Counted from the stretch's first letter, positions 1-32,665 are shown. The stretch: 64,000 nt of DNA from Candidatus Woesearchaeota archaeon (GCA_016938695.1 JAFGUC010000043.1:119213-183212); one strand, 5' to 3'. Numbers and translations are program-made. The notes: generated by a model not told the origin, from the letters alone.

Positions 1-1705
1 CCGAAGCAATTCCAAAAAGTTTTTTTGAAACAACACTTTGAATACCATTTTTCATTCCTGAAAAAGCAGCTTTTCCAAAAGAAAAAACATCAAATGCAGA
101 ATTAAGAAGACCACCAATCATCATATTTTTTAGAATATTAGTTGATACATCATAACCCCATGCATTTTCTTCACCATCAGGCATTGACTCATAAAAGAAA
201 ACATATTTTGGACTTTTGTATGCTGTTGCAATATCTTTTAAAAAACTTTTAACAGCATCCCCTTTCAAATCTTCATTAACATCATTCTCAGGAAGTTCAA
301 AATTTGATACAAAACAATATCGTCTCATATTTGCATCTAAATATTGAGTACAACCAATTGAATCATAACCAACAACATTTGCATCATACAGATTATAAGG
401 CATTTTTATAAAATTCCAGTCAAAAATAGATGTGTAGCGTGGAATTCTTTCAGAATTAAATAACGCATCAATTTGATCTTGTTGTATCTTTCTACCAATG
501 TAATATGTTCTTCCTTCTTCAATCTTAGAAGGTTGTAAACTTCTTGCATCAGTAAGTGGAAGAAGAATTGTACTACCCGGAGAATCAAAAGAATCAGATA
601 CAGTTCCATCCTGATTACAACCAAACATAGATTTATCAGGAGTAAAATCTTCAGTAAAATAAACATATGCACTCAAGACTTGATCGGATGCATTTACCAT
701 ATATCTACACAAGTAACTCTTAAATTGTTCAGGATGCAAACGAGTTCCAAACAAATTATCAGCACGTATAATATTTCCATTATAAAAAAACATTTTTACG
801 GTGTTTCTTAACCCAGCAATAAAATTAGCAGAACTCGCTTTTTCTCTAATATCAGTTTCTAATTTACTTTGTAGTAAACTCCACTGGTCATCTGTAATAT
901 AACTAAAATGACTTCCAATATCACTCTTAAGATTATCAACAATATACTTTGCATAATATGAACTAGAACCAGGATTACGAGTTAAAGAATACCCTGAACT
1001 AATATAATTTAACAATTCTCCATTACTCAAAGAAGATGCTTTAGTTAAAATTGGAATTAAATTACTAACAACAGACTCTTGCTGAGCTTCAGATAAATAA
1101 TAGGAATCAATATTTTCATAAAACAAATCATGATTCTCCAAATATTCGTTTGCATCATAATAACCATAGATAAATGGTCGACCATTCATCACACAAACAG
1201 AATAATCTAAAATACTTGAACTACACGATGTAAAATCCATAATATGTTTTTTAACATTAATATCTAAAGAATACATATAATCAGACTTTTGAACCATACT
1301 CAAAAAAGCTTCAGTCATTAAATCATTTTTAAAATTATAAGTTCCCTTATACTTAGAAGGGTCAGAATAATATTGAGTATTTACCTCCTCAAACATATTC
1401 CAAATGATTCCATCAATTGATGTTAAAACTGTGTTTTCTAATTCAGAATTCAAAGGGTTTGTTGTCAAAACTTTAACACTATTAATTAGACCCATAATAC
1501 TATATCCTGCACGACCAAAATCGTCTTCTGGATTATACGCCATGAATTCATCTTCACTTGAATTTACATAAGTTTCGACTTGATCTTGAATACCAAAAAT
1601 TGGTCCTAATGCATCCTTTGCAATTGGAGTAATTGCAACATTTAATACTGCAAGAAGTACAAAAAGTCCAACAATAATATCAACAACCTTTGAAAACATA
1701 ACCAT
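1..1705 (-). CDS. Membrane-anchored surface protein, partial (C-terminus lies beyond the left window edge)
   Basis: This ORF is missing from the ORF track because it has no stop codon inside the window. I translated the minus strand by hand from the ATG at 1705 (MVMFSKVVDIIVGLFVLLAVLNVAITPIAKDALGPIFGIQDQ...). The frame stays open for 568 codons down to position 2. It has one N-terminal hydrophobic helix, and the rest is S/N/Y/D-rich like the other surface proteins of the operon. The start lies 1 nt after the stop of the upstream micro-ORF. Confidence 0.7.
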   Translation of the reverse strand, partial: MVMFSKVVDIIVGLFVLLAVLNVAITPIAKDALGPIFGIQDQVETYVNSSEDEFMAYNPEDDFGRAGYSIMGLINSVKVLTTNPLNSELENTVLTSIDGIIWNMFEEVNTQYYSDPSKYKGTYNFKNDLMTEAFLSMVQKSDYMYSLDINVKKHIMDFTSCSSSILDYSVCVMNGRPFIYGYYDANEYLENHDLFYENIDSYYLSEAQQESVVSNLIPILTKASSLSNGELLNYISSGYSLTRNPGSSSYYAKYIVDNLKSDIGSHFSYITDDQWSLLQSKLETDIREKASSANFIAGLRNTVKMFFYNGNIIRADNLFGTRLHPEQFKSYLCRYMVNASDQVLSAYVYFTEDFTPDKSMFGCNQDGTVSDSFDSPGSTILLPLTDARSLQPSKIEEGRTYYIGRKIQQDQIDALFNSERIPRYTSIFDWNFIKMPYNLYDANVVGYDSIGCTQYLDANMRRYCFVSNFELPENDVNEDLKGDAVKSFLKDIATAYKSPKYVFFYESMPDGEENAWGYDVSTNILKNMMIGGLLNSAFDVFSFGKAAFSGMKNGIQSVVSKKLFGIAS

Positions 1706-1706
1706 T

Positions 1707-1835
1707 TTAACTCAAAGCTCCTTTCAAGGTATCAAAAGCGCCAAACATACTTCCACCACCTTTAGCACTAATATAAACACCAATTAAAATTAAAACCAAC
1801 GCAATAATAATTCCAATAATATATTTCATCTCCAT
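1707..1835 (-). CDS. Small membrane protein, 42 aa (below the ORF-track size cutoff)
   Basis: Hand translation gives MEMKYIIGIIIALVLILIGVYISAKGGGSMFGAFDTLKGALS, with one clear TM helix. A TAGGTG Shine-Dalgarno-like motif sits 7 nt upstream of the ATG. The ORF exactly fills the gap between two operon genes. Confidence 0.4.
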   Translation of the reverse strand: MEMKYIIGIIIALVLILIGVYISAKGGGSMFGAFDTLKGALS

Positions 1836-1845
1836 TCTAAAACAC

Positions 1846-2838
1846 CTAATTTGCTAAAACATCACAATAATCTGATAACGCGTCTTGAGTATATGGAATA
1901 ACAACTAATGATGAAACTCCATCTTTATACTCTTCAACTTCGCTCGTAGGAATACCTAATTTATTTGAAATTAATGATCCTATTTGATCAAATCCATGTA
2001 CCTTTGTTCTCGTAAAAACAACAGCAAACGAACCATCTTTGTAATCATAATTACGACTTTCTATTCCAAATATATCTGAGCTATAATCATCTTGTAGATA
2101 TTCATAATAAGACATTGCAGTATTTGAAACAGGAATATGGGTCAACCAATAAATCAAAGAGTTTGGGTCATCTTTATATGGTGTCAAACTACTAGAACTC
2201 ATAACATTATTTGAACTCATATCTAAATATAATTCATGATCAAAATCAATCTTTGAACAAATAACACAGACAGTTGGAGGTTGTAATCTATGAGGAACCC
2301 ATGAATTAATCCAACCTTTTCCTTCCTCAGTCCCTATATATTGAAACCAAGAACTAAATAAATCTAATTTTCCTTCGCCCAATTCAGACCAACAAGATTT
2401 CATCTCACCTGCAACCAATTGATTCAAACGATATTTGTAAACTTGCCATTTAAGATTAGAATCGGTATTAAATCCCAAAATTTCTTTTTCATTTAAACTA
2501 TTACCAGAATCATCTTGAAAAAATTTCCATTTTACTAATTTTTTTGCTTCACCAGATGTAAAAGGCTGATCTACATTATACACAATTAAATCATCATCAG
2601 ATTTTCCTTTTTTTTCTTGGACTTTTATATAGTTAATAGGACAATTTAAGTCAATTGGATTTGAACCCGCTGTTGCAGTATTTGCTAAAGAACTTGCAAT
2701 CGCTGATGCACGGCAAGTTGAATCATCAGCAGTACTAATCATAAAATCAAACATACCAGTGCTAAAACCCAATAAAACTAACGTCGCAACAAGAAACAAA
2801 ATAATTCCAACTAAAAAACCAAATTGTGCCTTTTTCAT
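1846..2838 (-). CDS. Class III signal peptide (type IV pilin-like) protein, 330 aa
   Basis: The N-terminus is MKKAQ-FGFLVGIILFLVATLVLLGF. This is the [KR][KR][AGS]Q motif followed by about 20 hydrophobic residues, shared by nine proteins in this operon. The start overlaps the stop of the upstream micro-ORF (ATGA). Confidence 0.75.
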   Translation of the reverse strand: MKKAQFGFLVGIILFLVATLVLLGFSTGMFDFMISTADDSTCRASAIASSLANTATAGSNPIDLNCPINYIKVQEKKGKSDDDLIVYNVDQPFTSGEAKKLVKWKFFQDDSGNSLNEKEILGFNTDSNLKWQVYKYRLNQLVAGEMKSCWSELGEGKLDLFSSWFQYIGTEEGKGWINSWVPHRLQPPTVCVICSKIDFDHELYLDMSSNNVMSSSSLTPYKDDPNSLIYWLTHIPVSNTAMSYYEYLQDDYSSDIFGIESRNYDYKDGSFAVVFTRTKVHGFDQIGSLISNKLGIPTSEVEEYKDGVSSLVVIPYTQDALSDYCDVLAN

Positions 2839-2960
2839 TGGAAACCTCGATCAACTGCATTCTTCATTATCAACAAAACAACAACCATAAATAAGAAAAG
2901 CAAAACAGCAATAATAGCCATCTTAAGACCACTACTCTCAATCTCCCCTTTTTTTTCCAT
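2835..2960 (-). CDS. Small membrane protein, 41 aa (below the ORF-track size cutoff)
   Basis: Hand translation gives MEKKGEIESSGLKMAIIAVLLFLFMVVVLLIMKNAVDRGFQ, with one TM helix. Its stop overlaps the start of the 330-aa gene (ATGA). No convincing RBS is visible, so confidence is low. Confidence 0.25.
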   Translation of the reverse strand: MEKKGEIESSGLKMAIIAVLLFLFMVVVLLIMKNAVDRGFQ

Positions 2961-3014
2961 AACGACTGTAAAAGAAATATGATTTATAAATATTACTTAA
3001 AAAGAAAACAAAAA

Positions 3015-3293
3015 TTATCTACAACAACCAGAGCCTTTTGGACAATCAATATATCCTTGGCTAGCATCAGCGTCAGATTTTGAACAGCCAGTTTCACCAA
3101 CTGATAAACACTTAGCACCTTCTCTTGTTTGCGAACATAAATTAGTATTAAATTCTTTAACTGCGGTCTCTTGACCTTGAGTTCCTTGTCGCATTTTACT
3201 AGCAAAAACAGACAAAAGAACAACCAAGACAACTAGAGCAATAGCTGCGACAACAACCAAATTCAAACTCATGCCATCTCCTTTTTTATTCAT
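3015..3293 (-). CDS. Small 6-Cys pilin-like protein, tandem paralog 3 (92 aa)
   Basis: I trimmed the track ORF 3015..3335 to the internal ATG at 3293 (MNKKGDGMSLNLVVVAAIALVVLVVLL...). This removes the overlap with the upstream paralog and aligns the N-terminus with the other two copies. The C-terminal half has 6 Cys and ends in GCCR. Confidence 0.75.
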   Translation of the reverse strand: MNKKGDGMSLNLVVVAAIALVVLVVLLSVFASKMRQGTQGQETAVKEFNTNLCSQTREGAKCLSVGETGCSKSDADASQGYIDCPKGSGCCR

Positions 3294-3294
3294 T

Positions 3295-3585
3295 TTAGCT
3301 ATTTGACACAGGACAACAATATTGTGTTGAACCACAATCTACAAAAGATCCTGGTTTAGTCGCTCCTCCTTTTTGAACACAACCGGAATTAGAACTACAT
3401 CTATACTCATTATCTGTTTCACAAGCTTGATTGAGAATATTATTAGTTGATTTCTCCCCCTCTTGTGTAGAAGTACGAATCTTACTTGCAAAAATTGCAG
3501 TAAGAACAACTAAAACAATTAAAGCAATGGCCGCAACAACGACCATATTAAGGCTCATACCTTGTGCTTTTTTTGAAAAATTCAT
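3295..3585 (-). CDS. Small 6-Cys pilin-like protein, tandem paralog 2 (96 aa)
   Basis: The N-terminus is MNFSKKAQG-MSLNMVVVAAIALIVLVVLTAIFASK (class III-type). It has the same 6-Cys pattern ending in a CC pair (QYCCPVSNS). Confidence 0.8.
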   Translation of the reverse strand: MNFSKKAQGMSLNMVVVAAIALIVLVVLTAIFASKIRTSTQEGEKSTNNILNQACETDNEYRCSSNSGCVQKGGATKPGSFVDCGSTQYCCPVSNS

Positions 3586-3590
3586 TTTAA

Positions 3591-3929
3591 TTAATTAGAT
3601 GGTAATCTGCAACAAACCTTAGGGTCTGCTGTGTTTGAACCTGCTTGACAATCCAACCAGTTTCCTGCACCAGTTGCAGTTCCTCCATCAGGTCGTGAAA
3701 CTTCCCACGGAGTGTTACATTGGCTTGCAGCAACACATTTTGATTGTGAATATCCATCCACAGGTTTCATACATATATTGTTAAATGCATTATCATCATT
3801 TTGACCTACTTTTTCCGAAGAAGTATTCATTCTGCTAATAAAAATTGCAGTTAGAACAACTAAAACAATCAGAGCTAAAGCAGCAACGATTACAACATTA
3901 AGACTCATAGATTGTGCTTTTTTTGACAT
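3591..3929 (-). CDS. Small 6-Cys pilin-like protein, tandem paralog 1 (112 aa); candidate major subunit
   Basis: The N-terminus is MSKKAQS-MSLNVVIVAALALIVLVVLTAIFISR. It has 6 Cys ending in CC (KVCCRLPSN). A GAGGTG RBS lies 8 nt upstream. It is the only gene of this operon preceded by a 75-nt AT-rich spacer with TATA-like boxes. Confidence 0.8.
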   Translation of the reverse strand: MSKKAQSMSLNVVIVAALALIVLVVLTAIFISRMNTSSEKVGQNDDNAFNNICMKPVDGYSQSKCVAASQCNTPWEVSRPDGGTATGAGNWLDCQAGSNTADPKVCCRLPSN

Positions 3930-4004
3930 ATCTCAAACACCTCAAATAATATTATTGTATTTAAATAGTATAAAGACATTTAAAAATTTATCTATAATTT
4001 TAAC
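3930..4004 (-). promoter_or_regulatory. Putative internal promoter plus RBS for the tandem mini-pilin genes
   Basis: The minus strand reads ...aaatttttaaatgtctttatactatttaaatacaataatattatttGAGGTGtttgagatATG. Two TATA-like boxes (tttttaaa, tttaaata) and a GAGGTG Shine-Dalgarno motif are present. This is the largest non-coding gap inside the otherwise overlapping operon. Confidence 0.4.
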
Positions 4005-4574
4005 TTAATCACATACAAATAATTCTATCCAAAGAGTTCCAGGATACAAAGGAACTGGGAACATTTTTGACGTTCCACCATATTTTCTTTGACAACCAGG
4101 AGCAGTAGTTCCACGATATGGAATTGTTAAAGGATTAACAAAACTAATAGTATACTCATCAAATTCATTAGTAAATTCTGTTTCATCTTTTGTCAAAGTT
4201 AAAAAATAACGAACACTCCACTTATTCAATGTTTCATTAAGGACATGACCAATGACAATCTCTGAAAATTGACATGCAGACATCATTTCATTAACGCCAT
4301 AATAAGTCAAGTTCGATTGATCACAATAAATATCATTTTCAGTTGCACAATCTTGCAACAATTCAGTTAAAGTAAGATTATAATCCAAAGTACAAACAAC
4401 TTTAGTTGCCAATAATGAATTCAAAACATTTGCAGCAACTTGATGAGCAACATAACTATTTTTTGCATCAGATTTCTTTGTTGCACCTGTTGTCATCATA
4501 AAAAGCATTCCCATAAAAAGCAGCATAACAACAATTATTAAACCAAATATTTCCATCTGTGCACGTCGATTCAT
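4005..4574 (-). CDS. Class III signal peptide (pilin-like) protein, 189 aa
   Basis: The N-terminus is MNRRAQ-MEIFGLIIVVMLLFMGMLFMM. A GGGTGA RBS lies 6 nt upstream. The start overlaps the upstream gene by 4 nt. Confidence 0.75.
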   Translation of the reverse strand: MNRRAQMEIFGLIIVVMLLFMGMLFMMTTGATKKSDAKNSYVAHQVAANVLNSLLATKVVCTLDYNLTLTELLQDCATENDIYCDQSNLTYYGVNEMMSACQFSEIVIGHVLNETLNKWSVRYFLTLTKDETEFTNEFDEYTISFVNPLTIPYRGTTAPGCQRKYGGTSKMFPVPLYPGTLWIELFVCD

Positions 4575-5128
4575 CGTTCAGTCACCCTGAAATAACTTGT
4601 AACAGTCAATAATCCAAAATAATACGCACCAACAGAAGTATCTGACGCATTGTATAAAACAACTGGAATCTGAATGGAACGTTGAGAATATCTAAATAAC
4701 GGTTTATACAAAGAATTTGAAGGAAAAACATCATATACTGCGTTTCCTCCAGTAAAATTAATACCATTTTCTATAGGATATATTTCTTGAACTTCAACTT
4801 TTAAATCCCCAAGCATTTTTCGATAATACAAATAATCCTCAGAGTCAAGCATTTTACGTTTAAAAGAAATTAATTTCAAAATATCTAAACAATCATATTT
4901 CAAAACATTATCATATGAACAACTAAACTCACCTAGCGAATAAACTTGTTGAGCTTTTTCAACCATCTCTTGCTCATTAAGTTCTTGTTGTTTAACTGCT
5001 TGATCAGAAGATTGAAAACGAATAAAAAAAATCAAAGCAAATATAATAAGAATAAAAAAAACTATCAAAATCATCATAGTCTGTCCAGTTTCCAACTGAC
5101 CCTTTTTATTCAATATAACACTGGACAA
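4571..5128 (-). CDS. Class III signal peptide (pilin-like) protein, about 180-185 aa
   Basis: It contains NKKGQ-LETGQTMMILIVFFILIIFALIFFI. The track start at 5128 is a TTG. A second TTG at 5113 overlaps the upstream TGA (TTGA) and would give MNKKGQ..., matching the other N-termini. Either start is possible. Confidence 0.7.
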   Translation of the reverse strand: MSSVILNKKGQLETGQTMMILIVFFILIIFALIFFIRFQSSDQAVKQQELNEQEMVEKAQQVYSLGEFSCSYDNVLKYDCLDILKLISFKRKMLDSEDYLYYRKMLGDLKVEVQEIYPIENGINFTGGNAVYDVFPSNSLYKPLFRYSQRSIQIPVVLYNASDTSVGAYYFGLLTVTSYFRVTER

Positions 5129-6195
5129 CTGTAATCCCTCGCTCGCATATTCATTGCTTCAAGACCTTTAAAAGAATTCTCAATTGTTTTAGCATCATCT
5201 TCAGATATTGATTGTTTACTAACAATCTCAAAAGCCACATTCTTCATAGTCCTTGCTAAATTAGAATCATAAAGAACAGAACCACATGTTAAAAAATCAT
5301 TGCAATACAAATTACATAAATTATTAATTTTCTGTTCATATACACCAGCCAATCTACCAAGTCGATTAAATGCTTTTATCAAATTACAATCATATATTTC
5401 AGAGTCATCTGAAAATATTGCAGCAACCATAGTTGCATTATCTATAAAATAACTTTCACCCGTTTTAACTTTTACGCCAGAAAGATGAGAATAATAACTA
5501 ATTTTCCCAAATCCAATTGAACCAGATTCAAATTCTAAATTTACAGCAGAAACATTTTTAGAATTTTTACCACCAACAGAATCAATTAAATCTGCAGATT
5601 GTAAAGTTGAATCATCATTTAAAAAAATATATCTAACATTATAAAAACCTTCATCTATTAAAGAATCTAAACTAGAAGAATTAACGACATCTAAAGTAAT
5701 ATTGTCTGGAAAATGTTTCATCACTGTTTTATAATCTTCTAAACTATCTCTAACCAAAATATACCTAACATCATCAGATGTGACAAATAAAAAATTTAAT
5801 GTTTTAAATGGAAGATTCCAATCTAAACTATATGTAATCATTTTTTTTCCAGATATCTTTCTAGGTGAAAAAATCGACATCAAATCAGAACTTACATCAA
5901 CAGAAGAACCTTCTACACGATACCCCGAATAACACCCATGCGTAGTACAAGTATCCAACTCACAATAAAACTCCAAAGTTTGCTTTGGCATTGAAATTGC
6001 TTGAGTTGAACGCTCTTTAACTAAACTAGATTGTAAAATTGTTTTAAAACTCATAACAACATTAATTGATATCTTTGTCTCAGCTTGATCCTTTTGCTTA
6101 GAAACTATAGAAATAAAAAAAGTTAAAATTACTGCACCTATTATCAAAATAAAAATCCAATTAAATTGAGATGAAATCTGGGATTTTTTCATCAT
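5110..6195 (-). CDS. Class III signal peptide (pilin-like) protein, 361 aa
   Basis: The N-terminus is MMKKSQ-ISSQFNWIFILIIGAVILTFFISI. The rest is a Cys-containing extracellular domain. Confidence 0.75.
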   Translation of the reverse strand: MMKKSQISSQFNWIFILIIGAVILTFFISIVSKQKDQAETKISINVVMSFKTILQSSLVKERSTQAISMPKQTLEFYCELDTCTTHGCYSGYRVEGSSVDVSSDLMSIFSPRKISGKKMITYSLDWNLPFKTLNFLFVTSDDVRYILVRDSLEDYKTVMKHFPDNITLDVVNSSSLDSLIDEGFYNVRYIFLNDDSTLQSADLIDSVGGKNSKNVSAVNLEFESGSIGFGKISYYSHLSGVKVKTGESYFIDNATMVAAIFSDDSEIYDCNLIKAFNRLGRLAGVYEQKINNLCNLYCNDFLTCGSVLYDSNLARTMKNVAFEIVSKQSISEDDAKTIENSFKGLEAMNMRARDYSCPVLY

Positions 6196-6199
6196 AAAC

Positions 6200-6682
6200 C
6201 TAATCTAAACTAATTTTAGCAGCGTCGCCTAAACCAGTTAGGACAAATTCATATTTATTTGATTTTGATTTAACACACAAAAATCCAGAATCAATCTCTA
6301 TTTTTCCAATATTGAATGCTTCTTCTAAACCTTTATCAGATAACAAAAATGTGTTTTCTTCTGCACCCGATGAAACTGAATCATATATTAAAAAATATTT
6401 TTCATCATCTGGAATTAAATCCGCAGTACCCGATCCACCAATGAAACAAATCTCATTAATACCTGGAACTCCAACAACAGTAACTGGTTCAACTGAATTA
6501 TATTCTGTTGAAATTGTACTTACCGAATCAAGAAGTGTTCCTTTGAACTTAACCATTTGAACACTATCTGCTTGTTTCTTAAAACTTCCAATTGACTTAA
6601 CTCCAAAAATTAAAATAGCAGCTACAATAATCATACCAAGAACATACATAATTGCTTGACTTTGAACCATTCCCTTTTTCAT
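6200..6682 (-). CDS. Class III signal peptide (pilin-like) protein, 160 aa
   Basis: The N-terminus is MKKGMVQ-SQAIMYVLGMIIVAAILIFGV. A GAGGTG RBS lies 6 nt upstream of the ATG and overlaps the stop of the 1185-aa gene. Confidence 0.75.
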   Translation of the reverse strand: MKKGMVQSQAIMYVLGMIIVAAILIFGVKSIGSFKKQADSVQMVKFKGTLLDSVSTISTEYNSVEPVTVVGVPGINEICFIGGSGTADLIPDDEKYFLIYDSVSSGAEENTFLLSDKGLEEAFNIGKIEIDSGFLCVKSKSNKYEFVLTGLGDAAKISLD

Positions 6683-6692
6683 TCAATACACC

Positions 6693-9600
6693 TCACATAT
6701 TCAGGTCATCTTTTAATTTGATATAATCAACATTACTTAATTTCCCTGACGAATATAACTCTAATAATAACTGTTCCAAATCTCTTTTATTAATTTTTCC
6801 ATCTTCTAAAAGCTTTTTAAGAAGAGTTGACATTATTCCAATATTCATTCCTTGGGAAATTCCTTCTGCAAAAGTATTCATCAAATTTGAATTTTGTTTC
6901 CGTTTACCAGATATTAAATTATCTAAATCTGAAACATCATTTTTTTTCTTTTGTGATAATTCATCTAAACGATTTTGCTTCCTATTCAATATTCTATCTA
7001 ATGCATCGCCTTTTATTTTTCTTGATGCCAATCTAGATAAACTATCAGTATTCTTACCAATTGAGTCTAGTTTACTAAAATCAGATTTATCGGACTTTTT
7101 AACTGAAGTCTTTTGCAAAAATTCATCTAATTCAGAACTCTTATTAATAATAGACGATAAATCTTTTTGAGATTCAACATTAACTTGTTTCTCAAATTTT
7201 TCTAGCTCAGATATATCTTGCTTCTTAGCAGGTAAACTTGATGAAACATCTTTTTTTGTACTAGAAATTCCTGATTTTTTTAATTTCTTAAGCTTCAATT
7301 TTTTTGCAAGAACTTTTTTGAATTCTTCGCTAGTCAATGAAGATTTTGGCACAACGCCATCAAAAACATTAAACAATTTACTTCGTTCTTTCTCACGAGA
7401 TAAATCTACTGAATGCTTTGCTTTAAGATTATGTAATTTTGAATTTGGTTTAGGTCCTGCGACAATAGGTTTTGATACTTCTACCTTTGTCTGAACTTTA
7501 TGTTGTGAAACAGTATTAACATTAGTCTCGACATTTACCTTCTCTTGTGGATGTTGCTGTTGTTGTCGTAACTTTTGTTGTTTTTCAAGTAATTCTTTTT
7601 GTCGTAATTTAATTAACTCAACATCCCTTATAGGTTTAAAATAGTCAAAAGTATAACTACTTGCTAAATAAGAGGCAATAATCAAAAATATAAAAACAAG
7701 AAATACTATAACCCAATTAATTGGATGATCTTTTGGATCCAACGGATTATAACTTAAATCTAGTTCAATTTTATCAGTATAACCATCACCATCAGTATCT
7801 TTTCTTGTTGGGTCAGTTCCTTTTTTCAATTCTTCAATGTTAAGAAGTCTATCGCCATCAGGATCATCATTTGGATCAGCACAATCAATACAACCATTTT
7901 CTAGAGGTGTACATTTAAAGTATTTCTCTTCCCACCAATCAAAAAGACCATCACCATCACAATCTTTTTTCTTGTAATCTTCACAAATTCCACCTTTACA
8001 ATAATTACTTGCACAATCAGAATCTAAACTACAAACTGAACCAATTCCACAACCTAAACAAAATGAACCACCACAATCAATATCAGTTTCTTCACCATTT
8101 CTAACAGAATCATCACAAGAGGAAGGTTGACAAGTATAATTATCACAAAAACCACTGATACAATCAGAATGAACACCACAATTTTTTCCTAACTCACATC
8201 TATAACCTTGTTGTGCACAATTTTTTCCACAATCTAAATCAGTTTCAATTGTTCTTTGAAATCTATTATCAGTACAAGTTGGAGCAATGCAAACATTATC
8301 TAAACAAAACTGATCAAAGCAATCAGAATCAACTAAACAGCTTTTACCAACACCACATCCTTGACAAGGACCACCACAATCAACATCAGTCTCAGATTCG
8401 TTTGAATCAAAAATATCATTATTACAAAAAATATCAGCACCAGGTTTAGTATAAAAACTAATGTTAAATGTTCCATTAACTTTATTTCCAGCAGCATCTC
8501 TTGCAGAATAGCATAAACGATAATTCTTATCAACTGTTTGAGGATTCATATACAATTGTGATGGAAAACAAGAACCAAAATCAACCATATTAAAACGTAA
8601 ATCAATACACTGACCAGAATCATCAACACATATTAATGATACAAAAGTCATCCCAAAACTAGTTGACATATTGTAAGAAACAACAGGAGGTTGTGAATCA
8701 CAAGAAATACCTGTTTCATCAAAATTAATACTTTTTGATGCATACATACTTTTTAATCCTGCCTTGTTGTATGCTTCAACAGTAATAAAGAAGATATCCT
8801 TGTCTGTTGTATTAAGATTTTCATCTTTTATAACAATTTTAGAACCTGATTGAGTCCAATTCACTAACTGTTTTCCGCCTTTTTCAACCATATACATATA
8901 ATAATCTATTCCACTCTCATTATCGAAAGATTCAGCTGTTAATTCTAAAGTATTCTTTACACAAGAAACATCAGAACCATTTAGAACTGGTTGACTTGGT
9001 GGAGTTTTATCTACAATAAAATTATAATCCAATTCTCTAAACTGAGTAATTTCAGCAGAATCACTAACACATTCAAAATGTATCACGTGTGGTCCTTCTT
9101 CAGCATATATTTCATTTAAAGATTTATGATGCGATAGTGGAACTGCAGGAGTGCTGTCAGTTTTTAGTAATTCAGAATCATCAAAACTATACTCACAATA
9201 AGATGGTTTATTTGTAAAAAAATCTAAAGTAAAAAGATCCTTAGAAGTATATTCTGCAGGAACCTCAACCAAAATTTGAAGAGCAGCACTTAAATCAACT
9301 TCATATTCCACTAATTGTTCAGTTCGCCATAAAGCTCTGTCCTGACAAATCAAATTAATATCATAAATACCATTTTCCTCTGGCAAAATATTATTCAAAG
9401 AAACAGTATGTTCCTTTACATAAGAGTCAACACTATTTTGACTGTCTTTAGTATCATTTCCAAAATAACGTCTAGTTCCTAGCAAATCAAAAAAACAAAA
9501 AGTATCTTCATTTGTAACAACAGTAAAATTAAATTTATTTTCTAAAGTAATCATCTTTGGAGGATTAAATGTTGTACTAACTATCGTTGGAGGAATAACA

Positions 9601-10250: not shown

Positions 10251-10290
10251 ACAACGTACCTATTAACAGATAAAAATAAAATTAAAAAAA

Positions 10291-19317: not shown

Positions 19318-19377
19318 TCAATCACCCTTTTTTTATAAATAAATATAAACTACTTTAAAAAGTTTATGATTTAAAAC
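19318..19377 (-). promoter_or_regulatory. AT-rich spacer with T-run and TATA-like box upstream of the 3008-aa gene (possible internal terminator/promoter)
   Basis: The minus strand reads taagttttaaatcataaactttttaaagtagtttatatttatttataaaaaaaGGGTGAttgaGTG. Confidence 0.25.
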
Positions 19378-22300
19378 TTAATCTTCTGTTAAAACAACCC
19401 ATGACCCATGATTACAAATCATATATTGATTTTCTATTTTTTTACCATATTGTGAATTAAACGAATTTGCATTAATTGTAGCAATTCCATTTGAAAAATC
19501 ATCTGTTGAATCATAACAATATCGAACAATACCACCAGCATCATACGAACAAGAATCTGGATTTTTACAACAAGCATTTCCCCCATTAACGTTTAGATTA
19601 TTAAAAGAACCTTGATCAACGGAATTATATCCTGAAGGAATTCCACTTGTTATTTTTTTCCATCTAAATGGTGTAACATATTCAAAATCATCATCGCCAC
19701 AAACAGGTTTTTGAGATTCTTCTAAATCTTTCCAAGTTACATCCCAAGAATAAGACTGTATTCCTTGAATGGATGCTAAGTTTTTTGCAACAACATCAAA
19801 ACCAGGAGTCTGCTGAAGTTCATAAATTAGTTCAGGATAATTATCTAAATCATACTCACGATCTTTATAACATTTTGATTGTCCAGAATCATCGCCACAA
19901 GAATATGTATAAATAAACCAAGAACCTTTACTTCCCTTTAACTGCAAAGATTTTCCTGCCAAAATAGTATCCTCAGAAAGTAAAGCAGTAATACTAGTAA
20001 TAAATCCATTGTCTACATTAGTAATATCATAACCATTCAATTTAGTACAATCAAAAGAGTTTGAATCACCAGCATACCCACAAACACCATTACTACATCG
20101 TAAATCTACTAAAAATTTTCCAGATGTTTTTAATGATAAAGAAGATAAAGAAGAACCAATCGAATCAACACACCAAGTTCTACTTGAACAAGAACCATCT
20201 GCAGATTTTGTTGAAGGGTTGTATGTTCCAGGAAGAAGTTTATTCAAACCATTACTTTGCTCAAAAGATTTTCCAGAAACATATTTCGAACATTTTGCAA
20301 CTCCTGCAATTTCTTCAGCACCCACACAAGTTTCAACTTGATATGTTTTTTGCCAATCATCATACATATCAATATCACCACAAGCTTCAATTATATCAGC
20401 TTCAACCTTTAAATCTCCCAAACAAACATTTCCTCGATCTCCATCACAATATCGCCTAACTAAAACTCTTGCGACATCATTCTTCAATTTATAATCCGAC
20501 ACATCAACTTCACTCATAGATGATAAAGAGCAATCTGAATCAGAACCACAAAATCTATCTAAGATATCATCACGATCAATTGGATCACCTGCTTTGACGT
20601 TCAATTTTCGCTCATAACAAACAGAATTAATATCTTTGACTCTTCCCCAAAACTCATTAATATTCTTATCATCTAATGAACCATAACAACAAGAATGATT
20701 TGCAAAAAAAGGATTTTCTTCTCCATTATACGGATAAGGTTCAATATCACTTTGATATGGAATACAACTATAAACTTCAAGAGGAACTTTACTAATAGAT
20801 TCAGATGAAATTCCAGTCATTCCTTCGCTTTTAGCAGTCAACGTTAAAAAATGCAAATTATGATTTCCAAATGGTCGCGCAGTATCAGAAAATCTAACAT
20901 CACTCATATTTGTTATATCTAAATCATCGTAATCTGCAGGAAAATACATTGTTAAATTCTCAGTAATCAACAAAATTGATGGCGTTTCATTAGAATCAGA
21001 CCATTCGTAGACAATCCCACCGGCATTAATTTCATCACTTGTTGCAGATGCATCAAGTATAAATGGATCTTCAATAGAAGTAAACCTATCGTCAGGATAA
21101 TAATCATTAAATTCAGTAAAAATTGAACGTGACAAAGATGCATCTGCTTCTAACGCATCATCTACCAAAATTCGAACTGTTTGATAATCAATTAAACTCT
21201 GATTATCGAAAATAAACACAGTAACATTATGAGGACCAATAGATAAACCATTCAAATAATAATTTGCCCAAGATTCAGTTTCCTTATAGAATGAAGAATC
21301 CTCCCAAACATTAACATCGTCAGGAAGTTTTGCAGATTCTGAACTAATTATATTTTGGGAAACCATCAAATCCTCAATTTTTCCTAAATAAATACCATCA
21401 TGATAAACATTTGGATAATCATATTTCCCAGACGGATTAACATAAGTAATATTATAATCAGCCATCCAACCTCGATAATGATATTCTATTTTATCACTAT
21501 CTGGATCATAACCTTTAGCTTTAATTACCAAAGTGTTATTTTCCATGACGACAATATCATATTGCTTTGGAACAGGAAGTTTTCCAGGAATATAATCTAA
21601 CACAGGGTTTCTATTTTCAATTGCAAACTGAAATAATTCGTTTTCTCCTTTCAAGAATCCTTTGGGATTAATTATTCTAAAAACATCATTACCCATATAA
21701 TAATCTTTTAGCAAAACGTATTGATACGGATACAAATCATAATCAAACACAGTATATGCCGCCATAGGCGTAAAAGTAACATTGGTAATCTCTCGACGGA
21801 TAATTTCATAAGCTAAAATATACAACGTCATGAATTTAGATTGCTTATTAGAAGTAAAAGTAACTTTCTTACTAACAGAATCTTTTTGAAAAGTAATATT
21901 CAACGGATAATCCATTCTAATTTCAACAGAACCAGACTTAAATTGAACATGAACATCAGGGCTATCAGCAACAGTAACATTATGACTTAATTTTTTTGCA
22001 AACGACGAAAAATTAACACAATTAGGAATATTAACTTCAATAAAGTGTTCCATCTGTTCTTGAATTGAATTAAAACCAGATTTTGTTCCATACATATACA
22101 AACAATCTGCAGCAGTTCTACAAAGAGGGTTTAAAGTATCTGCTCCAAATCGTATTTTATTGTATCTTATCATATCTTCAGTAAATACTGATAAATTATT
22201 CAAATAACCACAAAATGCAGGAGGTTTCCCACTCTTGCCACAAGGATACTGAGGAGCATCAACAGAAGTATAAGATCTATCAAGTGAAACACCATAAGTA

Positions 22301-22617
22301 ACATTTGCAGAATAATTGTGTCCTATATTAAATGGAAGAAAACGAGGATTACTCTGGTATATACTTGCACCTTGATGAGGAAATATTACTCCACCTTGTT
22401 GTTCTAACAAATACAAAGCATCACTAGAAATAGTATCAAGACAAAGTCCAACATAATTTTCAATTGTTGTAGTTTGCAATAAATCTTGAACAATACTGTC
22501 TGCAGCACTATCTAGTTGTCTTTGAATTGCTTGCTCTCTAATATTTTGAATAAAAGAAAAAGAAGCAAAAATCAAAATTCCTAAAACTATAAAAATAGTT
22601 ACTTGAGCACGTTTCAT
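19378..22617 (-). CDS. Giant class III signal peptide (pilin-like) protein, 1079 aa; candidate tip or adhesin subunit
   Basis: The N-terminus is MKRAQ-VTIFIVLGILIFASFSFIQNI, the same motif as the small pilins. The C-terminal half is Cys-rich with CGDD and C..GSW motifs. The start overlaps the upstream gene (ATGA). Confidence 0.8.
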   Translation of the reverse strand: MKRAQVTIFIVLGILIFASFSFIQNIREQAIQRQLDSAADSIVQDLLQTTTIENYVGLCLDTISSDALYLLEQQGGVIFPHQGASIYQSNPRFLPFNIGHNYSANVTYGVSLDRSYTSVDAPQYPCGKSGKPPAFCGYLNNLSVFTEDMIRYNKIRFGADTLNPLCRTAADCLYMYGTKSGFNSIQEQMEHFIEVNIPNCVNFSSFAKKLSHNVTVADSPDVHVQFKSGSVEIRMDYPLNITFQKDSVSKKVTFTSNKQSKFMTLYILAYEIIRREITNVTFTPMAAYTVFDYDLYPYQYVLLKDYYMGNDVFRIINPKGFLKGENELFQFAIENRNPVLDYIPGKLPVPKQYDIVVMENNTLVIKAKGYDPDSDKIEYHYRGWMADYNITYVNPSGKYDYPNVYHDGIYLGKIEDLMVSQNIISSESAKLPDDVNVWEDSSFYKETESWANYYLNGLSIGPHNVTVFIFDNQSLIDYQTVRILVDDALEADASLSRSIFTEFNDYYPDDRFTSIEDPFILDASATSDEINAGGIVYEWSDSNETPSILLITENLTMYFPADYDDLDITNMSDVRFSDTARPFGNHNLHFLTLTAKSEGMTGISSESISKVPLEVYSCIPYQSDIEPYPYNGEENPFFANHSCCYGSLDDKNINEFWGRVKDINSVCYERKLNVKAGDPIDRDDILDRFCGSDSDCSLSSMSEVDVSDYKLKNDVARVLVRRYCDGDRGNVCLGDLKVEADIIEACGDIDMYDDWQKTYQVETCVGAEEIAGVAKCSKYVSGKSFEQSNGLNKLLPGTYNPSTKSADGSCSSRTWCVDSIGSSLSSLSLKTSGKFLVDLRCSNGVCGYAGDSNSFDCTKLNGYDITNVDNGFITSITALLSEDTILAGKSLQLKGSKGSWFIYTYSCGDDSGQSKCYKDREYDLDNYPELIYELQQTPGFDVVAKNLASIQGIQSYSWDVTWKDLEESQKPVCGDDDFEYVTPFRWKKITSGIPSGYNSVDQGSFNNLNVNGGNACCKNPDSCSYDAGGIVRYCYDSTDDFSNGIATINANSFNSQYGKKIENQYMICNHGSWVVLTED

Positions 22618-25600
22618 CGTATTAAACGAGTTTGTAATGCAAAGTCATCTACTAAAGTCTCCCACAAAACCTTGTCGAAACTCGAATCGGAATTAACAAA
22701 ATCATCGTAAAATTTACTTTGAGACGGATCAAATGCATCGTTCACAGTATAATAAATTGTAAAACTAGAGTCATCATGACTACTAAAATCATTCCACGAA
22801 CCTTGATTTGATCTAAACAATTTTATTGAATAATCACTGACTCTATCTTCCTCATATTGTTTAAATTGATCAAATTTAGATGAAATATTTGAAATAACAT
22901 TATCACTAAACTCATCATAAACAACTTTAGTTATTATCTGTTGACCTGAATTAAATCCTGAAACAGCAAAAATGTTTCCAGAATCTGATTTTGATAAATA
23001 CAATTTGTCATAAACACTAAATTCTGCCAAATTCTCATCAACATCAAATGAATTAGAACTAAATACGGATTTGAAAAAATCCAACAATCTAGTCAATACT
23101 CCTCTAGATGATTGAACAAGAGGCATACTAGGTAAACTTCCAGATTTACTGAAAAATAAAATACCTTTTCCAGAATCATAATATGAATATGGTTGCATTT
23201 TATAATCGCCACTTGAAAATAAATCTGACCTACCAATACGGTTAATATCTGTTGAATCAATTACGCCATTACTAAAAGGATCATTATTAAATTCAAGTGC
23301 CATAATAGTCCTATTACCATTTGGATTTTCAGTAGTAACTTCATCAGATGAAACATATCTTAAAACACAACCTTTCCAATTGTATTCTTCAGGATGTTGA
23401 ACAGAAGGAATTGAACCCTTTGTATTAAATACAAAATCAAATCGTCCACAATGCAGAGTATATTCATTGATATCTAAAACATCTGTGAAATTTAATAACT
23501 GTTCAGACATTAAAGCAACTCTTGATTTCCATGAACCAGAATCACAATAATAATCACCTACGTAATAACCATTTGGAATACATTGAACTTCATTGAATCT
23601 ATAAAAATTATACAAAGTAGGAAGATTAGACATAAATCCAGAAACGTATCCATTCAAGAAATTTTGCTGTTCCAAATTATCAAAAGAACTATTATAATTT
23701 GCAGTTGGATTAACTAAACAATCATTTACACGTGGACAATAACCATGAGTTAATCCAGCACCAGTATTAAAATTTCTAATCAAACTTTCTGCCCCAGTTC
23801 CAGAAGGATCTGAATTAGAAGCAGTTTCTTGCCAAGTTTCAACTTTTTCTGATAAAGTCCAAGTTCCATCAATACAACGATAAGAATTATCACCGCTTAC
23901 TAATCGCAACCAATTAGTTGGTTCATCACGTTGATTCTCTACACAAGAATAACCATTCCAACACCAATCATCAGGACAACAACCATCTAAATAAGGTTTA
24001 ACATGATTTTCAATTCCACGTTCGCCAATAGTACTATCTTTTGAATTTAAAGTTCCATCATATAAATATACAGAATTTAAATTATCTACATCTAAGTCTT
24101 CTGCAATAGAAGATAATGTAGTTCTTTTAGAAGAATAAACCTTATCCATTAAATCAACAGCATAATCATTCTTCCAACCTTCGTGTGATGAACAATAATA
24201 AGTTCCTGCAATATCACAACTTGATTTTTGATTTGAACTTGAAATTAAATTGAGTATATTTCCCACTTGAACAGAATTTTCAATTGTAAGACTTAAATCA
24301 CTTGGTAAATCATTAGAACCTAAATTGCAGGAATAAAACTCTCCATTAAGAGCAAGAAGTTTCGAATAACCAACATTAGAACTATCATCATGAACATCAA
24401 CATCAGACATTCTATATGAATCTAAAACTCTCTTACCATTATAAACGAAATTTGAGCTATAACACGCACCAACACCATTAGAAAATTCCCAAGTTTCTTT
24501 AGAATCATCACCACAACATTGCGTATTATTATCTTTTATTAAATCAGAATCTTCAGTAGATTCTAAACCGCCAGCCCAAAATAAACCAGCAGTATTCTCA
24601 CAAGCCCAACCATCATAATCAAAATCTTTATGCCAGGTTCTATCTGAACCACAGAAATAAGACTCTTGAGAATTTCTACCTAAAAATACTCTATCAAATG
24701 CAAAAACATTATAAAAATATGAACCATCAGGTGCTAAAACAACTGGACCCGTCGTATCAACAGTGACATAAATGTTATTTATAGTATAGTCATTATTACA
24801 ACCCTCAAAGGATTCTTTTGATAACTTAAAATTTTGAAATACTCTTGAAAATATATCAGATTGAGGAACATTTGCACAACAAGCATCATCTCTAATACAA
24901 ACTTTTAAATCAGTATTTGGAGAATTCCATGTGAAAAAATCCAAAGCCAAATAATCAAAATCTCCAAAAGTTCGCTTAAACAAAAATTTGTTAGCTAAAG
25001 AATTAGCTATTAACTTTTTGTTATTCAATGAACTACTTGAAGTTCTATACAACAAAGTATTATCAAAACTAGTTTCAGAAAATTTCTCATAATCTGGATC
25101 ATAAACCAAATCTACAACTTGACTTGTTCTTCTAAGTCTACTAAAATAATAATCAGTATCAGACCATTTCTTAGAAGTATCTAAAAAAGTAGGATTCATA
25201 GAATAATAAGTTGGACCAGTACATTCGTATATTTTTGAATCACTACAAAAATACGATTCAATTAAATTAGTATCTCTCCATTCAGCCACTTGTGAAACAG
25301 ATAAAACATTTTTGAATTGATAATAATCGCAACTTGAAACTGAAGAGAAATCATCAGTCGGACAAGCATAAACAACAACATCATAATTTGAACCAACATT
25401 TTGAGGCTTTGAAAATTCAGCATAACCAACATAAATTGGTTTAATCAATCCTGATTCATCAACAGGCGTTGAATAATCATCCAACTGAACTTTAAAAACA
25501 TCATTAACAAAACTTAAATCAGTTTGAACAGTAGAACTACCTGGTTTTCTGAAAACAAAACCAGCATTAGAATTATCAAAAAATGCAATAGAACTTTCAC

Positions 25601-27035
25601 CATTCTTTCTAATACCTATTCTCAAATATCTTTTTGCAGTATCAAATTTAATACCAGATAACAAAAATTCAGATTGCTCATCTATATTAAATAAAACACC
25701 ATCCAAGTAAAGTTCTCCAGACAAACTCTCAGAATCGGAAGGTATATAATTGTCACCATCATCAAATAAAACTAAAACATCATCAGGATTTAAATAATTC
25801 TCATCCATATAATAGCCTACAGAACTTTCACTTGAAACAACATCACCAGATGCGGAACCAATTCTAACAGAATCAATCAAATTAGTCAAATCAGCCAAAG
25901 AAATAGTACTAAAATCAGATACAGAAGAACCTGGCGAATCAGAATCATAAATATCATAAAAATCACTATATGTAGATTGACCATTCAAAGAAGAACTTAC
26001 AACAGAATCAACAACAGTATCACTAATAACATTAACTCCAACATTAGTTGTAAAATCAGAAGCCATAAAATTTTCGCCGTTACAGACTAACCAACCATAA
26101 GAACTAGCCCCCACATAATTAGTTGCAAGTACATCACGATTACCAGTTCCTGAAAACACAGAAGCTAAACCCGATATTTTATCTATCTTAAAAGGATAAT
26201 CTATATTTCTTCTATAAAACACATTTCCAACAGTAGAAGGAATTGATTCTCCTGTAAAAGTTGAAAAAGGAAATCTAGAATCTGCACATAGATATGCATA
26301 GTTAGAATCCTGAGCGATATCATTAACATTAATTGAAATAGTAGTTGAAGATTTACAACAAGAACCTAAACCGGCCGGACAATCAAAATAACCCAAATTT
26401 TGTGTAGCAGGACTTGCTCCATGAAAAGAAACTAAATCACAATTCGAATTAAAATTCAATGGTAAAAATTTTATTTCAGAAAATCTTGAATCAGATACCA
26501 AAGACAAAGTATTTCCTGAAGTATACTCTTGAGAATAAGACGTTCCACGTGAAAACACCCCTTGCGCCAAACCAGTTCCTAGAAGACTAGTAGTTAAGGT
26601 TTGATCAATACAATTTGAGCGATAAACAGAATTTGGATTAACTGTTGCAAATAAATAACGACTAGTTATTATAAAAACCGAAGGTGCAGAACAATCCTTA
26701 CTTCTAACATTTGAAGTAAAAGTTTCACCATTCATGCAAGTACCTAACGTACAAGCTCCAAAATTACAACTAGTAACAGCACTAGAACATGCACTAGTTC
26801 CACAATATTCATAAATACAATCTGAATGACCAGAAATACTTCCAAATGAGCCATAATCAGTACCAGTCTCATCAGCAATACCACAAGATGAATAACTTAC
26901 AGCAGCACAATTAACATCACAAGCTTTACCATACATCCTTGCAGTAGGATCATAAGCAATAACTGAAGAAAGTAAAGAAATAGAAAGTACGACAAAAGCT
27001 AAAAATAGCATATTCCTCTTTTTTGTATTTAGCAA
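22614..27035 (-). CDS. Giant secreted surface protein, 1473 aa; first gene of the operon
   Basis: The track start is a TTG at 27035 with GAGGGG 9 nt upstream, giving MLNTKKRNMLFLAFVVLSISLLSSVIA-YDP, a Sec-type signal. An ATG at 27011 is the alternative start. The protein is S/N/D/Y/C-rich with CCGDD and C.DG.W motifs. Confidence 0.8.
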   Translation of the reverse strand: MLNTKKRNMLFLAFVVLSISLLSSVIAYDPTARMYGKACDVNCAAVSYSSCGIADETGTDYGSFGSISGHSDCIYEYCGTSACSSAVTSCNFGACTLGTCMNGETFTSNVRSKDCSAPSVFIITSRYLFATVNPNSVYRSNCIDQTLTTSLLGTGLAQGVFSRGTSYSQEYTSGNTLSLVSDSRFSEIKFLPLNFNSNCDLVSFHGASPATQNLGYFDCPAGLGSCCKSSTTISINVNDIAQDSNYAYLCADSRFPFSTFTGESIPSTVGNVFYRRNIDYPFKIDKISGLASVFSGTGNRDVLATNYVGASSYGWLVCNGENFMASDFTTNVGVNVISDTVVDSVVSSSLNGQSTYSDFYDIYDSDSPGSSVSDFSTISLADLTNLIDSVRIGSASGDVVSSESSVGYYMDENYLNPDDVLVLFDDGDNYIPSDSESLSGELYLDGVLFNIDEQSEFLLSGIKFDTAKRYLRIGIRKNGESSIAFFDNSNAGFVFRKPGSSTVQTDLSFVNDVFKVQLDDYSTPVDESGLIKPIYVGYAEFSKPQNVGSNYDVVVYACPTDDFSSVSSCDYYQFKNVLSVSQVAEWRDTNLIESYFCSDSKIYECTGPTYYSMNPTFLDTSKKWSDTDYYFSRLRRTSQVVDLVYDPDYEKFSETSFDNTLLYRTSSSSLNNKKLIANSLANKFLFKRTFGDFDYLALDFFTWNSPNTDLKVCIRDDACCANVPQSDIFSRVFQNFKLSKESFEGCNNDYTINNIYVTVDTTGPVVLAPDGSYFYNVFAFDRVFLGRNSQESYFCGSDRTWHKDFDYDGWACENTAGLFWAGGLESTEDSDLIKDNNTQCCGDDSKETWEFSNGVGACYSSNFVYNGKRVLDSYRMSDVDVHDDSSNVGYSKLLALNGEFYSCNLGSNDLPSDLSLTIENSVQVGNILNLISSSNQKSSCDIAGTYYCSSHEGWKNDYAVDLMDKVYSSKRTTLSSIAEDLDVDNLNSVYLYDGTLNSKDSTIGERGIENHVKPYLDGCCPDDWCWNGYSCVENQRDEPTNWLRLVSGDNSYRCIDGTWTLSEKVETWQETASNSDPSGTGAESLIRNFNTGAGLTHGYCPRVNDCLVNPTANYNSSFDNLEQQNFLNGYVSGFMSNLPTLYNFYRFNEVQCIPNGYYVGDYYCDSGSWKSRVALMSEQLLNFTDVLDINEYTLHCGRFDFVFNTKGSIPSVQHPEEYNWKGCVLRYVSSDEVTTENPNGNRTIMALEFNNDPFSNGVIDSTDINRIGRSDLFSSGDYKMQPYSYYDSGKGILFFSKSGSLPSMPLVQSSRGVLTRLLDFFKSVFSSNSFDVDENLAEFSVYDKLYLSKSDSGNIFAVSGFNSGQQIITKVVYDEFSDNVISNISSKFDQFKQYEEDRVSDYSIKLFRSNQGSWNDFSSHDDSSFTIYYTVNDAFDPSQSKFYDDFVNSDSSFDKVLWETLVDDFALQTRLIR

Positions 27036-27171
27036 ATTCCCAATCCCCTCACAAAATAAATATAAACAAAATGAATATTTCTTAATATAGTAAAATATTG
27101 TCCTTTTTAAATATTTCCTTTAAATACCCTTTAAAAAAGTTTAAAAAGTTAAAAATGAAAACTTAAATCGG
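27036..27171. promoter_or_regulatory. Divergent promoter region between the pilin/giant-protein operon and the membrane-protein/peptidase pair
   Basis: The spacer is 136 nt and AT-rich. On the plus strand, tttaaaaag (27140-27148) lies about 28 nt before the ATG at 27172, which has no RBS and is probably leaderless. TATA-like boxes on the minus strand (tttatattta, tatattaag) lie upstream of the GAGGGG RBS. Confidence 0.35.
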
Positions 27172-32652: not shown

Positions 32653-32665
32653 CGTATTTAAGATT

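Follow-up and report, generated by a model that had tools for sequence, protein, structure and literature searches.

The stretch of DNA described here comprises 64,000 nucleotides of a contig of Candidatus Woesearchaeota archaeon (GCA_016938695.1, JAFGUC010000043.1:119213-183212); this whole stretch is referred to as the window. Its first 27 kb hold a single operon, all genes lying on the minus strand and being read from position 27035 down to 1, in which genes for nine proteins with archaeal class III-type (pilin-like) N-termini are combined with genes for very large surface proteins. The class III-type proteins are named after their length in amino acids (aa), and a slash marks the likely cleavage point. 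The genes are, in the direction of reading:

22614-27035, minus strand: gene 1, 1473 aa, Cys-rich (44 Cys), Sec-type N-terminus, the ATG at 27011 being a possible start
19378-22617, minus strand: gene 2, p1079, 1079 aa, class III-type N-terminus MKRA/QVTIF
10291-19317, minus strand: gene 3, 3008 aa, Sec-type N-terminus
6693-10250, minus strand: gene 4, 1185 aa, Sec-type N-terminus
6200-6682, minus strand: gene 5, p160, 160 aa, class III-type MKKG/MVQSQ, minor pilin-like
5110-6195, minus strand: gene 6, p361, 361 aa, class III-type MMKKS/QISSQFNWIF with invariant FNW, minor pilin-like
4571-5128 (likely start 5113), minus strand: gene 7, p185, 185 aa, class III-type NKKG/QLETGQ, minor pilin-like
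4005-4574, minus strand: gene 8, p189, 189 aa, class III-type MNRRA/QMEIFG, 6 Cys, minor pilin-like
3591-3929, minus strand: gene 9, p112, 112 aa, small Cys-rich pilin paralogue MSKKA/QSMSLN, 6 Cys, ending in CC
3295-3585, minus strand: gene 10, p96, 96 aa, small Cys-rich pilin paralogue MNFSKKA/QGMSLN, 6 Cys
3015-3293, minus strand: gene 11, p92, 92 aa, small Cys-rich pilin paralogue MNKKG/DGMSLN, 6 Cys
1846-2838, minus strand: gene 12, p330, 330 aa, class III-type MKKA/QFGF
1707-1835, minus strand: gene 13, conserved 42-aa micro-protein, a single hydrophobic helix
1-1705, minus strand: gene 14, more than 568 aa, N-terminal hydrophobic anchor, cut by the left edge of the window

The nine class III-type genes lie on the same strand between 1846 and 22617. 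In their products a [KR][KRH][AGS] tripeptide is followed, mostly, by Gln and then by about 20 uncharged hydrophobic residues. All nine N-termini quoted in an initial annotation of the window (MKKAQF, MNKKGDGM, MNFSKKAQGM, MSKKAQSM, MNRRAQM, NKKGQL, MMKKSQI, MKKGMVQS and MKRAQV) were recovered. The Gln which that annotation placed at position +1 is found in seven of them, while p160 has Met and p92 has Asp at this position. A motif scan was performed over 946 candidate starts in open reading frames (ORFs) of at least 60 aa, in six frames of the 64 kb, with [KR][KRH][AGS] and, within a few residues, 18 uncharged and mostly hydrophobic residues as the pattern. The nine proteins were the only matches, though the window encodes many other membrane proteins.

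Alignments of orthologues place the likely cleavage point directly after [KR][KR][AGS]. Of the 65 orthologues from other genomes, which show 22-64% identity, 59 retain the strict motif, and most of the six others carry relaxed forms (SKAQ, KQGQ, HKGQ, NKAQ). In the p189 family (alignment A5, 36 sequences sharing 26-64% identity with the window protein) no residue is invariant except Gln +1, Glu +3 and Gly +6, and in the p185 family (alignment A6, 38 sequences) Gln +1 is among eight invariant residues; the members of both families are only about 30% identical, yet this Gln does not vary. The 1079-aa family shows the strict motif in 105 of 142 representatives, with Gln at +1 in 94 of these 105, usually as QxTxF. 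A polar residue fixed at the boundary of a basic leader is not explained by a plain membrane anchor. The relatedness of p189 and p185 is confined to the N-terminal 42 columns (hhalign probability 91.5%), and such a shared N-terminus on an unrelated remainder is the usual pilin pattern. With an A24 peptidase gene nearby, the conservation of the motif and of Gln +1 agrees with the claim of the initial annotation that these N-termini behave as archaeal class III signals. The nine proteins would be substrates of an A24 prepilin peptidase.

The peptidase gene itself had been overlooked. It belongs to a pair of genes on the opposite strand, separated from the operon by an intergenic region:

27036-27171, no strand: intergenic, presumed promoter region, 136 nt, A/T-rich, divergent, with TATA-like elements
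27172-28953, plus strand: polytopic membrane protein, 593 aa, its stop overlapping the start of the peptidase gene
28950-30068, plus strand: Peptidase_A24 (prepilin/class III signal peptidase), 372 aa, Pfam E 7.2e-7, 30.1 bits against a cutoff of 26.5

The peptidase gene is divergent from the operon and 2 kb upstream of it, so the enzyme needed by the class III hypothesis is encoded only 2 kb away. Both catalytic Asp motifs of such aspartic proteases, as in FlaK, PibD and PilD, are present: FTD(22)IRSKKIRN and NAGD(85)VKY. A homologue takes the same divergent upstream position in the related locus L011. The matches of the window protein were to the generic Peptidase_A24 domain only; no NCBIfam model and no relative in the PDB, where a structure of methanococcal FlaK is to be expected, was found. 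The neighbouring 593-aa protein was considered as a platform protein and rejected, as it is without any T2SSF signal; its PDB search gave only chance transmembrane matches.

The tight spacing of the operon genes on a single strand fits one long transcription unit, possibly with internal promoters. The junctions are not mostly overlaps of 1-20 nt, as described before: short overlaps occur at three of them only and the remaining ones are gaps of 1-176 nt. By inspection, a TATA-like element, TTTATATTTATTTT, lies in the presumed promoter region about 25 nt before the start and is followed by GAGGGG. The p112 gene is likewise preceded by an A/T-rich TATA-like stretch and GAGGTG, and TATA-like stretches with GGTGA/GAGG-like sites were also noticed in the gaps before the 3008-aa gene and the small-pilin genes.

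At the other end the operon does continue past the left edge of the window, as stated in the initial annotation, since the ORF from 1705 runs off it. Its orthologues in L005 and L008 have 1219 and 982 aa, respectively. As a convergent gene comes after the orthologue in L008, this gene probably closes the operon. The fragment (1-1705) has no domain match, and a homology search with it came back empty, the query itself included. The 42-aa micro-protein encoded just before it has orthologues with a KK[AG] leader in L006, L007, L041 and L060, so that it may be a helix-only pilin; the window copy is without this leader. A further micro-ORF, of 28 aa (MAIIAVLLFLFMVVVLLIMKNAVDRGFQ), lies on the minus strand in the 176-nt gap (2839-3014) before the p330 gene, its stop overlapping the next start codon; the same position is occupied by 43-aa single-helix ORFs in L005 and L006. 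Class III-type genes just outside the core block were seen in L008 (7230-8471), with a small pilin gene beyond the convergent gene, and in L010 (3076-5132), with two 160-like paralogues, so that more pilin-like genes may lie past the left edge of the window.

The three smallest class III-type proteins, p112, p96 and p92, are paralogues with 36-43% mutual identity, p96 being 43% identical to both others; each has six Cys and ends in CC. With 92-112 aa they are the best candidates for shaft subunits, p112 being a candidate major pilin. At the other extreme, p1079 joins a class III-type N-terminus to a Cys-rich ectodomain of about 1050 aa. Its relatives range from 400 to 1440 aa and keep the N-terminal part constant, which makes p1079 a candidate modular pilin or adhesin and the signature family of the locus. 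Cys counts are even throughout the operon proteins.

The proteins of 1473, 3008 and 1185 aa have, by inspection, the n-h-c organisation of Sec-type signals (...SSVIA/YD, ...SAS/VL and ...VYA/ED), as the initial annotation had proposed. No Pfam domain was found in the 1473-aa protein, relatives of which lie upstream of the 1079-aa family in L011, L014 and L016-L019. The 3008-aa protein consists of a Cys-rich N-terminal region, four CarboxypepD_reg beta-sandwich domains and one Big_13 domain; it has a syntenic 3040-aa orthologue in L003/L005 and is a probable secreted adhesin. The 1185-aa protein is a type I membrane protein. Its ectodomain contains three Cys-rich repeats and TSP3 calcium-binding repeats, and a transmembrane helix near residue 860 is followed by a cytoplasmic tail rich in Lys, Glu and Gln. 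Conservation covers residues ~100-960 and not the tail. It is the conserved large partner, encoded directly upstream of the minor-pilin block. CarboxypepD_reg, Big_13 and TSP3_bac were the only Pfam domains found in the large proteins, the PilY-like DUF2341 being absent.

The locus is widespread. With a profile of the 1079-aa family, relatives were detected in 24 species-representative genomes, the majority titled Candidatus Woesearchaeota or Nanoarchaeota archaeon, and an exhaustive search gave 839 clusters at 50% identity at E<=1e-30 and 2723 at E<=1e-10. Relatives of p1079 at 38-46% identity are found in metagenome contigs with the same neighbours, p330 being syntenic in the same way, and the QFNWIF pattern of the p361 family led to 363 confirmed relatives in JGI metagenomes. 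Co-occurrence was counted in 80 metagenome loci kept with the p361 family: 68 also have the p185 family, 55 the p189 family, 48 the 1185-aa family, 35 the p160 family, 12 the p330 family and 11 the 1079-aa family, while small pilins were found in 28 + 15 loci (best match p96 or p112). These counts are lower bounds because many contigs are short. A recurrent gene order was observed across loci, namely 1185-like, p160, p361, p185, p189, small pilins, p330, micro-ORF and last gene. The 1185-like protein and the pilin-like block form its constant core, and the other giants are variable or absent in many loci. L005 repeats the whole order, with proteins of 3040, 1173, 155, 361, 181 and 187 aa, three small genes, and proteins of 343, 43 and 1219 aa.

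Genes for archaeal MCM with an archaeal winged-helix domain flank related loci, which fits an archaeal origin. Some records with the locus are titled Thermoplasmatota or Methanosarcinales (P0014; L014, L018-L020, L024), probably reflecting problems of binning or naming rather than a wider host range. The recurrent neighbours are housekeeping genes: NuoE/F/G-like proteins (judged from their N-termini by inspection), a weakly RNase P p30-like protein and a Zn-ribbon protein. The last two, relatives of the window genes at 61802-62392 (weak RNase P p30 match) and 63595-63996 (Zn-ribbon), were considered as parts of the system and rejected as they look like housekeeping genes. In at least eight other genomes (L019, L021, L024, L026, L028, L030-L032) the pilin locus is directly downstream of relatives of the first and mostly also of the second. 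In the window both are about 34 kb away from the operon, with the A24 peptidase, radical SAM genes, glycosyltransferases and HerA giants in between.

No PilB/ArlI-type ATPase and no PilC/ArlJ-type platform protein is encoded in the 64 kb, in agreement with the initial annotation: neither Pfam T2SSE nor T2SSF matched any ORF of at least 100 aa. The search was extended to the 24 genome loci and 80 metagenome loci with flanks of up to 10 kb, more than 1 Mb in total, where no secretion-ATPase signature (Walker A GxxGxGK[ST] with [IVLM]G[ED]xR) was present; P-loop proteins near these loci are GTPases, MCM, P-type ATPases and the like. Absence of the motor from about 100 related loci indicates that separation from it is a stable property of the locus and not an accident of the window. 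The HerA/DUF87 ATPases of the window (46784-60929) were rejected as motor, since they are FtsK/HerA/VirB4-class enzymes and other genomes have the locus without them.

Judged by its gene content, the operon probably supplies a Woesearchaeota-type DPANN archaeon with the extracellular components of a type IV filament, a pilus-like appendage, and would unite its pilin, minor-pilin and adhesin genes. In the proposed mechanism the nine precursors would insert in the membrane and be cut after [KR][KR][AGS] by the A24 peptidase, which would expose Gln +1. The three small Cys-rich paralogues would build the shaft, to which the 42-aa helix-only protein might contribute, and p160, p361, p185, p189 and p330, with their fixed gene order, would assemble as a priming or tip complex. 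Displayed on this complex would be the adhesins, namely p1079 as a modular pilin and the giants of 1473 and 3008 aa that are exported by Sec, with the 1185-aa type I membrane protein anchoring or scaffolding the base. Extrusion would need an ATPase of the PilB/ArlI type and a platform of the PilC/ArlJ type, whose genes would lie at another place in the genome. Cleavage, polymerisation, the roles in shaft and tip and adhesion to host cells are all deduced here from what the sequence shows: the conserved N-terminal signatures, the peptidase gene with its two Asp motifs, the gene order and its distribution, and the absence of a linked motor.

Several results weigh against this interpretation. Pfam Class_IIIsignal (PF04021) gives no match to the nine proteins at E<=1, and among the other curated pilin models of Pfam and NCBIfam none is significant for them (best NCBIfam E 0.07-0.11; PilV and ComGE only at about 0.1). 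A strict FlaFind pattern, in the form we assume it to have, would accept only about two of the nine. Searches of the PDB by sequence and with profiles of the small pilins, p189 and p185 gave only chance matches to transmembrane helices. The AlphaFold2 models are too poor to recognise a pilin fold, with confidence scores (pLDDT) of 46.7 for p330 (alignment of 7 sequences) and 53.4 for p1079 (11 sequences). Among about 100 loci, only 2 have the A24 peptidase gene close by. The lack of a motor gene in the window and of an ATPase signature in the related loci counts on the same side, as does the statement of He et al. (2020, bioRxiv 10.1101/2020.05.14.094862) that DPANN genomes lack the components of type IV pili. 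In favour of a filament, FlaI, FlaJ and pilin-like genes are stated to be present in Woesearchaeota by Hamm et al. (2019, PMC6642349).

The missing PF04021 match also means that membership of the DUF361/EppA-substrate family is not shown, and together with the NCBIfam result it leaves the DUF361/EppA-type assignment of the initial annotation unsupported in the form in which it was made. The corresponding QxSxExxxL motif is absent from the nine proteins, which have QxTxF, QxExxG, QFNWIF and Q[GS]MSLN instead. The best Pfam match of the nine was a sub-threshold one, of the p330 N-terminus to DUF7287 (E 3.8e-5, 24.7 bits against a cutoff of 27). N-terminal helices are predicted in the low-confidence models of p330 and p1079, that of p1079 being long, and the remainder of both is unreliable. 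Foldseek matches of the weak p1079 model were to generic immunoglobulin (Ig)/cadherin arrays (TM-score at most 0.11) and were not used as evidence.

That the class III-like leaders are merely plain signal anchors or Sec signals, and the cluster a set of unrelated membrane and secreted surface proteins, would agree with the absence of curated model matches for the nine proteins, with the rarity of the peptidase linkage and with the Lys-rich N-termini that AT-rich genomes commonly produce. We regard this as very improbable: Gln after the basic-basic-small tripeptide is invariant across families at about 30% identity, with Glu +3 and Gly +6 in addition in p189, the motif is missing from every other ORF of the window, many membrane proteins included, and the genome encodes an A24 peptidase. 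Only slightly less remote is a secretion pseudopilus, similar to that of a type II secretion system (T2SS), pushing the Sec-exported giants through or onto the envelope. The pilin-like genes are tightly interleaved with those of the Sec-signal giants in one operon, and the four to five mid-sized pilin-like proteins recall the four or five pseudopilins of the bacterial T2SS. However, such archaea lack an outer membrane through which secretion would have to pass, linked genes for a T2SS-like ATPase, platform or secretin are absent, and the giants are variable or absent in many related loci in which the pilin block is constant.

A better case, though still an unlikely one, can be made for a non-filamentous surface complex, similar to the Sulfolobus bindosome or to a pseudopilus, in which the class III proteins, cleaved or anchored by their helices, form a short membrane-proximal stalk or an envelope like a surface layer (S-layer) that holds the giants and the 1185-aa protein. 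About 100 loci are without linked motor genes, and among the large partners the best conserved is a membrane-anchored type I protein, comparable to the S-layer-like proteins modelled in PMC4858521, which have a C-terminal transmembrane segment. S-layer proteins are among the generic Ig-array Foldseek matches of the weak p1079 model, and a 2026 preprint (10.64898/2026.04.22.720090) argues that the role of class III proteins is often to functionalise machineries and not to build pili. Three tandem paralogues of very small pilin-like proteins are, on the other hand, typical of shaft subunits, and no substrate-binding domains were found in the operon proteins, none of the nine class III-type proteins having a substrate-binding protein domain in Pfam. 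The missing motor does not favour such a complex over a pilus, since bindosomes and pseudopili, in the systems known, also depend on an ATPase and a platform.

Going one step beyond the filament operon, the locus might specify a Woesearchaeota-wide organelle for host attachment: a type IV filament made of families never recognised as pilins, in which five minor pilins display adhesins of multi-thousand residues and a modular pilin of 400-1440 aa, driven by an unlinked or non-canonical motor. We put this forward tentatively, with less than even confidence. Woesearchaeota and related DPANN archaea are abundant, uncultivated and ultra-small and are thought to be host-attached, and the locus may be how they attach. 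A groundwater study told bacteria of the candidate phyla radiation (CPR) from DPANN archaea by their pili, on the premise that DPANN genomes are without type IV pilus genes (bioRxiv 10.1101/2020.05.14.094862). If true, the organelle would overturn this view and open host recognition to genetic study. Annotation has missed a large group of class III signal proteins and a prepilin peptidase with them, although the families are common in environmental data. The marker families (QxTxF, QFNWIF, QxExxG and the small pilins ending in CC) could be used for genome surveys, imaging and host-range studies, the last because the giants are variable and the pilin core is constant.

The remainder of the window contains further gene clusters. 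At 30057-36534 lie small unannotated ORFs between three radical SAM genes, of which one has a SPASM domain, and this may be a peptide-modification cluster; among these ORFs are a Ser/His/Cys-rich one of 167 aa (33139-33642) and a Cys-rich one of 343 aa with an N-terminal anchor (33639-34670). A relative of the gene at 32666-33085 adjoins the A24 peptidase in L011 too. A surface-glycan cluster of 23-25% GC follows at 36802-44792, encoding a GT2 and three GT1/GT4 glycosyltransferases, an ABC-2 exporter pair, an initiating sugar transferase (Bac_transf) and a DUF5838 protein; a possible role is glycosylation of the sequon-rich giants. From 45035 to 61507, on the minus strand, a second giant-protein cluster opens with a 193-aa helix-turn-helix protein. 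Its 3995-aa protein has a Sec-type signal, a sequon-rich ectodomain of about 3380 aa, a transmembrane segment near residue 3390 and a cytoplasmic P-loop ATPase domain of the HerA/DUF87/TrwB-like type; a 726-aa paralogue has a short ectodomain and a nearly identical ATPase domain, and coiled-coil proteins of 312 and 275 aa come next. It is unusual for an ATPase of the FtsK/HerA class to be membrane-anchored and fused to a giant surface domain. The GC content is 22-27% at 28-46 kb compared to about 30-32% otherwise, and the stretch 27172-61507 may be an inserted variable region.

No description of the locus was found in the literature searched. The initial annotation had called it unlike the described loci, which is overstated, as both the Epd/clade 1 model and the bacterial minor-pilin/PilY1 operon are similar. 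Makarova et al. (2016, PMC4858521) model the clade 1 (Epd) system of methanococcal and thermococcal archaea as comprising a peptidase of its own, five or more minor pilin-like proteins, a pair of large adhesins and small major pilins, and they also describe pilin loci apart from the ATPase/TadC loci. Alike in both are the class III precursors with Gln +1, the nearby A24 peptidase, the five or more minor pilin-like proteins, the large secreted adhesin-like proteins and several very small major-pilin candidates. The present locus differs in that it has no ATPase or TadC-like platform pair, no QxSxExxxL (PF04021) match and no DUF2341, and all its families are without curated models; moreover, its large partners are much larger (1185-3008 aa) and one pilin-like protein itself has 1079 aa. 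System 1, as clade 1 is also called, has been reported in some DPANN (Sivabalasarma and Albers, 2026 preprint). The locus would probably be missed by models in which a co-localised ATPase and platform are obligatory, as in the core-system definition of the 2026 preprint 10.64898/2026.04.22.720090.

In organisation the locus is close to the fimU-pilVWXY1E operon of Pseudomonas. The bacterial fimU-pilVWXY1 operon combines minor pilins with a large adhesin and has no linked ATPase. Both are separate operons in which several minor pilins go with large non-pilin adhesins and no ATPase or platform gene is present, and the bacterial one serves as a working model of how a priming or tip complex may display an adhesin exported by Sec. 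In the bacterial system minor pilins present a large non-pilin adhesin at the pilus tip (see also bioRxiv 10.64898/2026.09.18.752573 on the PilC/PilY1 tip adhesin). The likeness is in organisation only, as no FimU/PilVWX-type or PilY1/PilC homology was detected in the operon proteins with Pfam and NCBIfam. The signals are of the archaeal type and not G/FTLxE, there are several giants instead of one PilY1, and the major-pilin candidates are encoded in the same operon. A pilin N-terminus on a large adhesive module, as proposed for p1079, is known from PilB of Streptococcus sanguinis (PMC8179133), again with no detectable homology. The Sulfolobus bindosome likewise has functional non-pilin proteins with class III signals that depend on a type IV filament machinery; it differs in its substrate-binding domains, which are absent here, and in having an ATPase and a platform of its own in the locus. 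New compared to all of these are the protein families and their conservation across Woesearchaeota, together with the giant partners and the fact that a linked motor is consistently missing. Archaeal pilin loci are already known as diverse and modular, but this one is lineage-wide.

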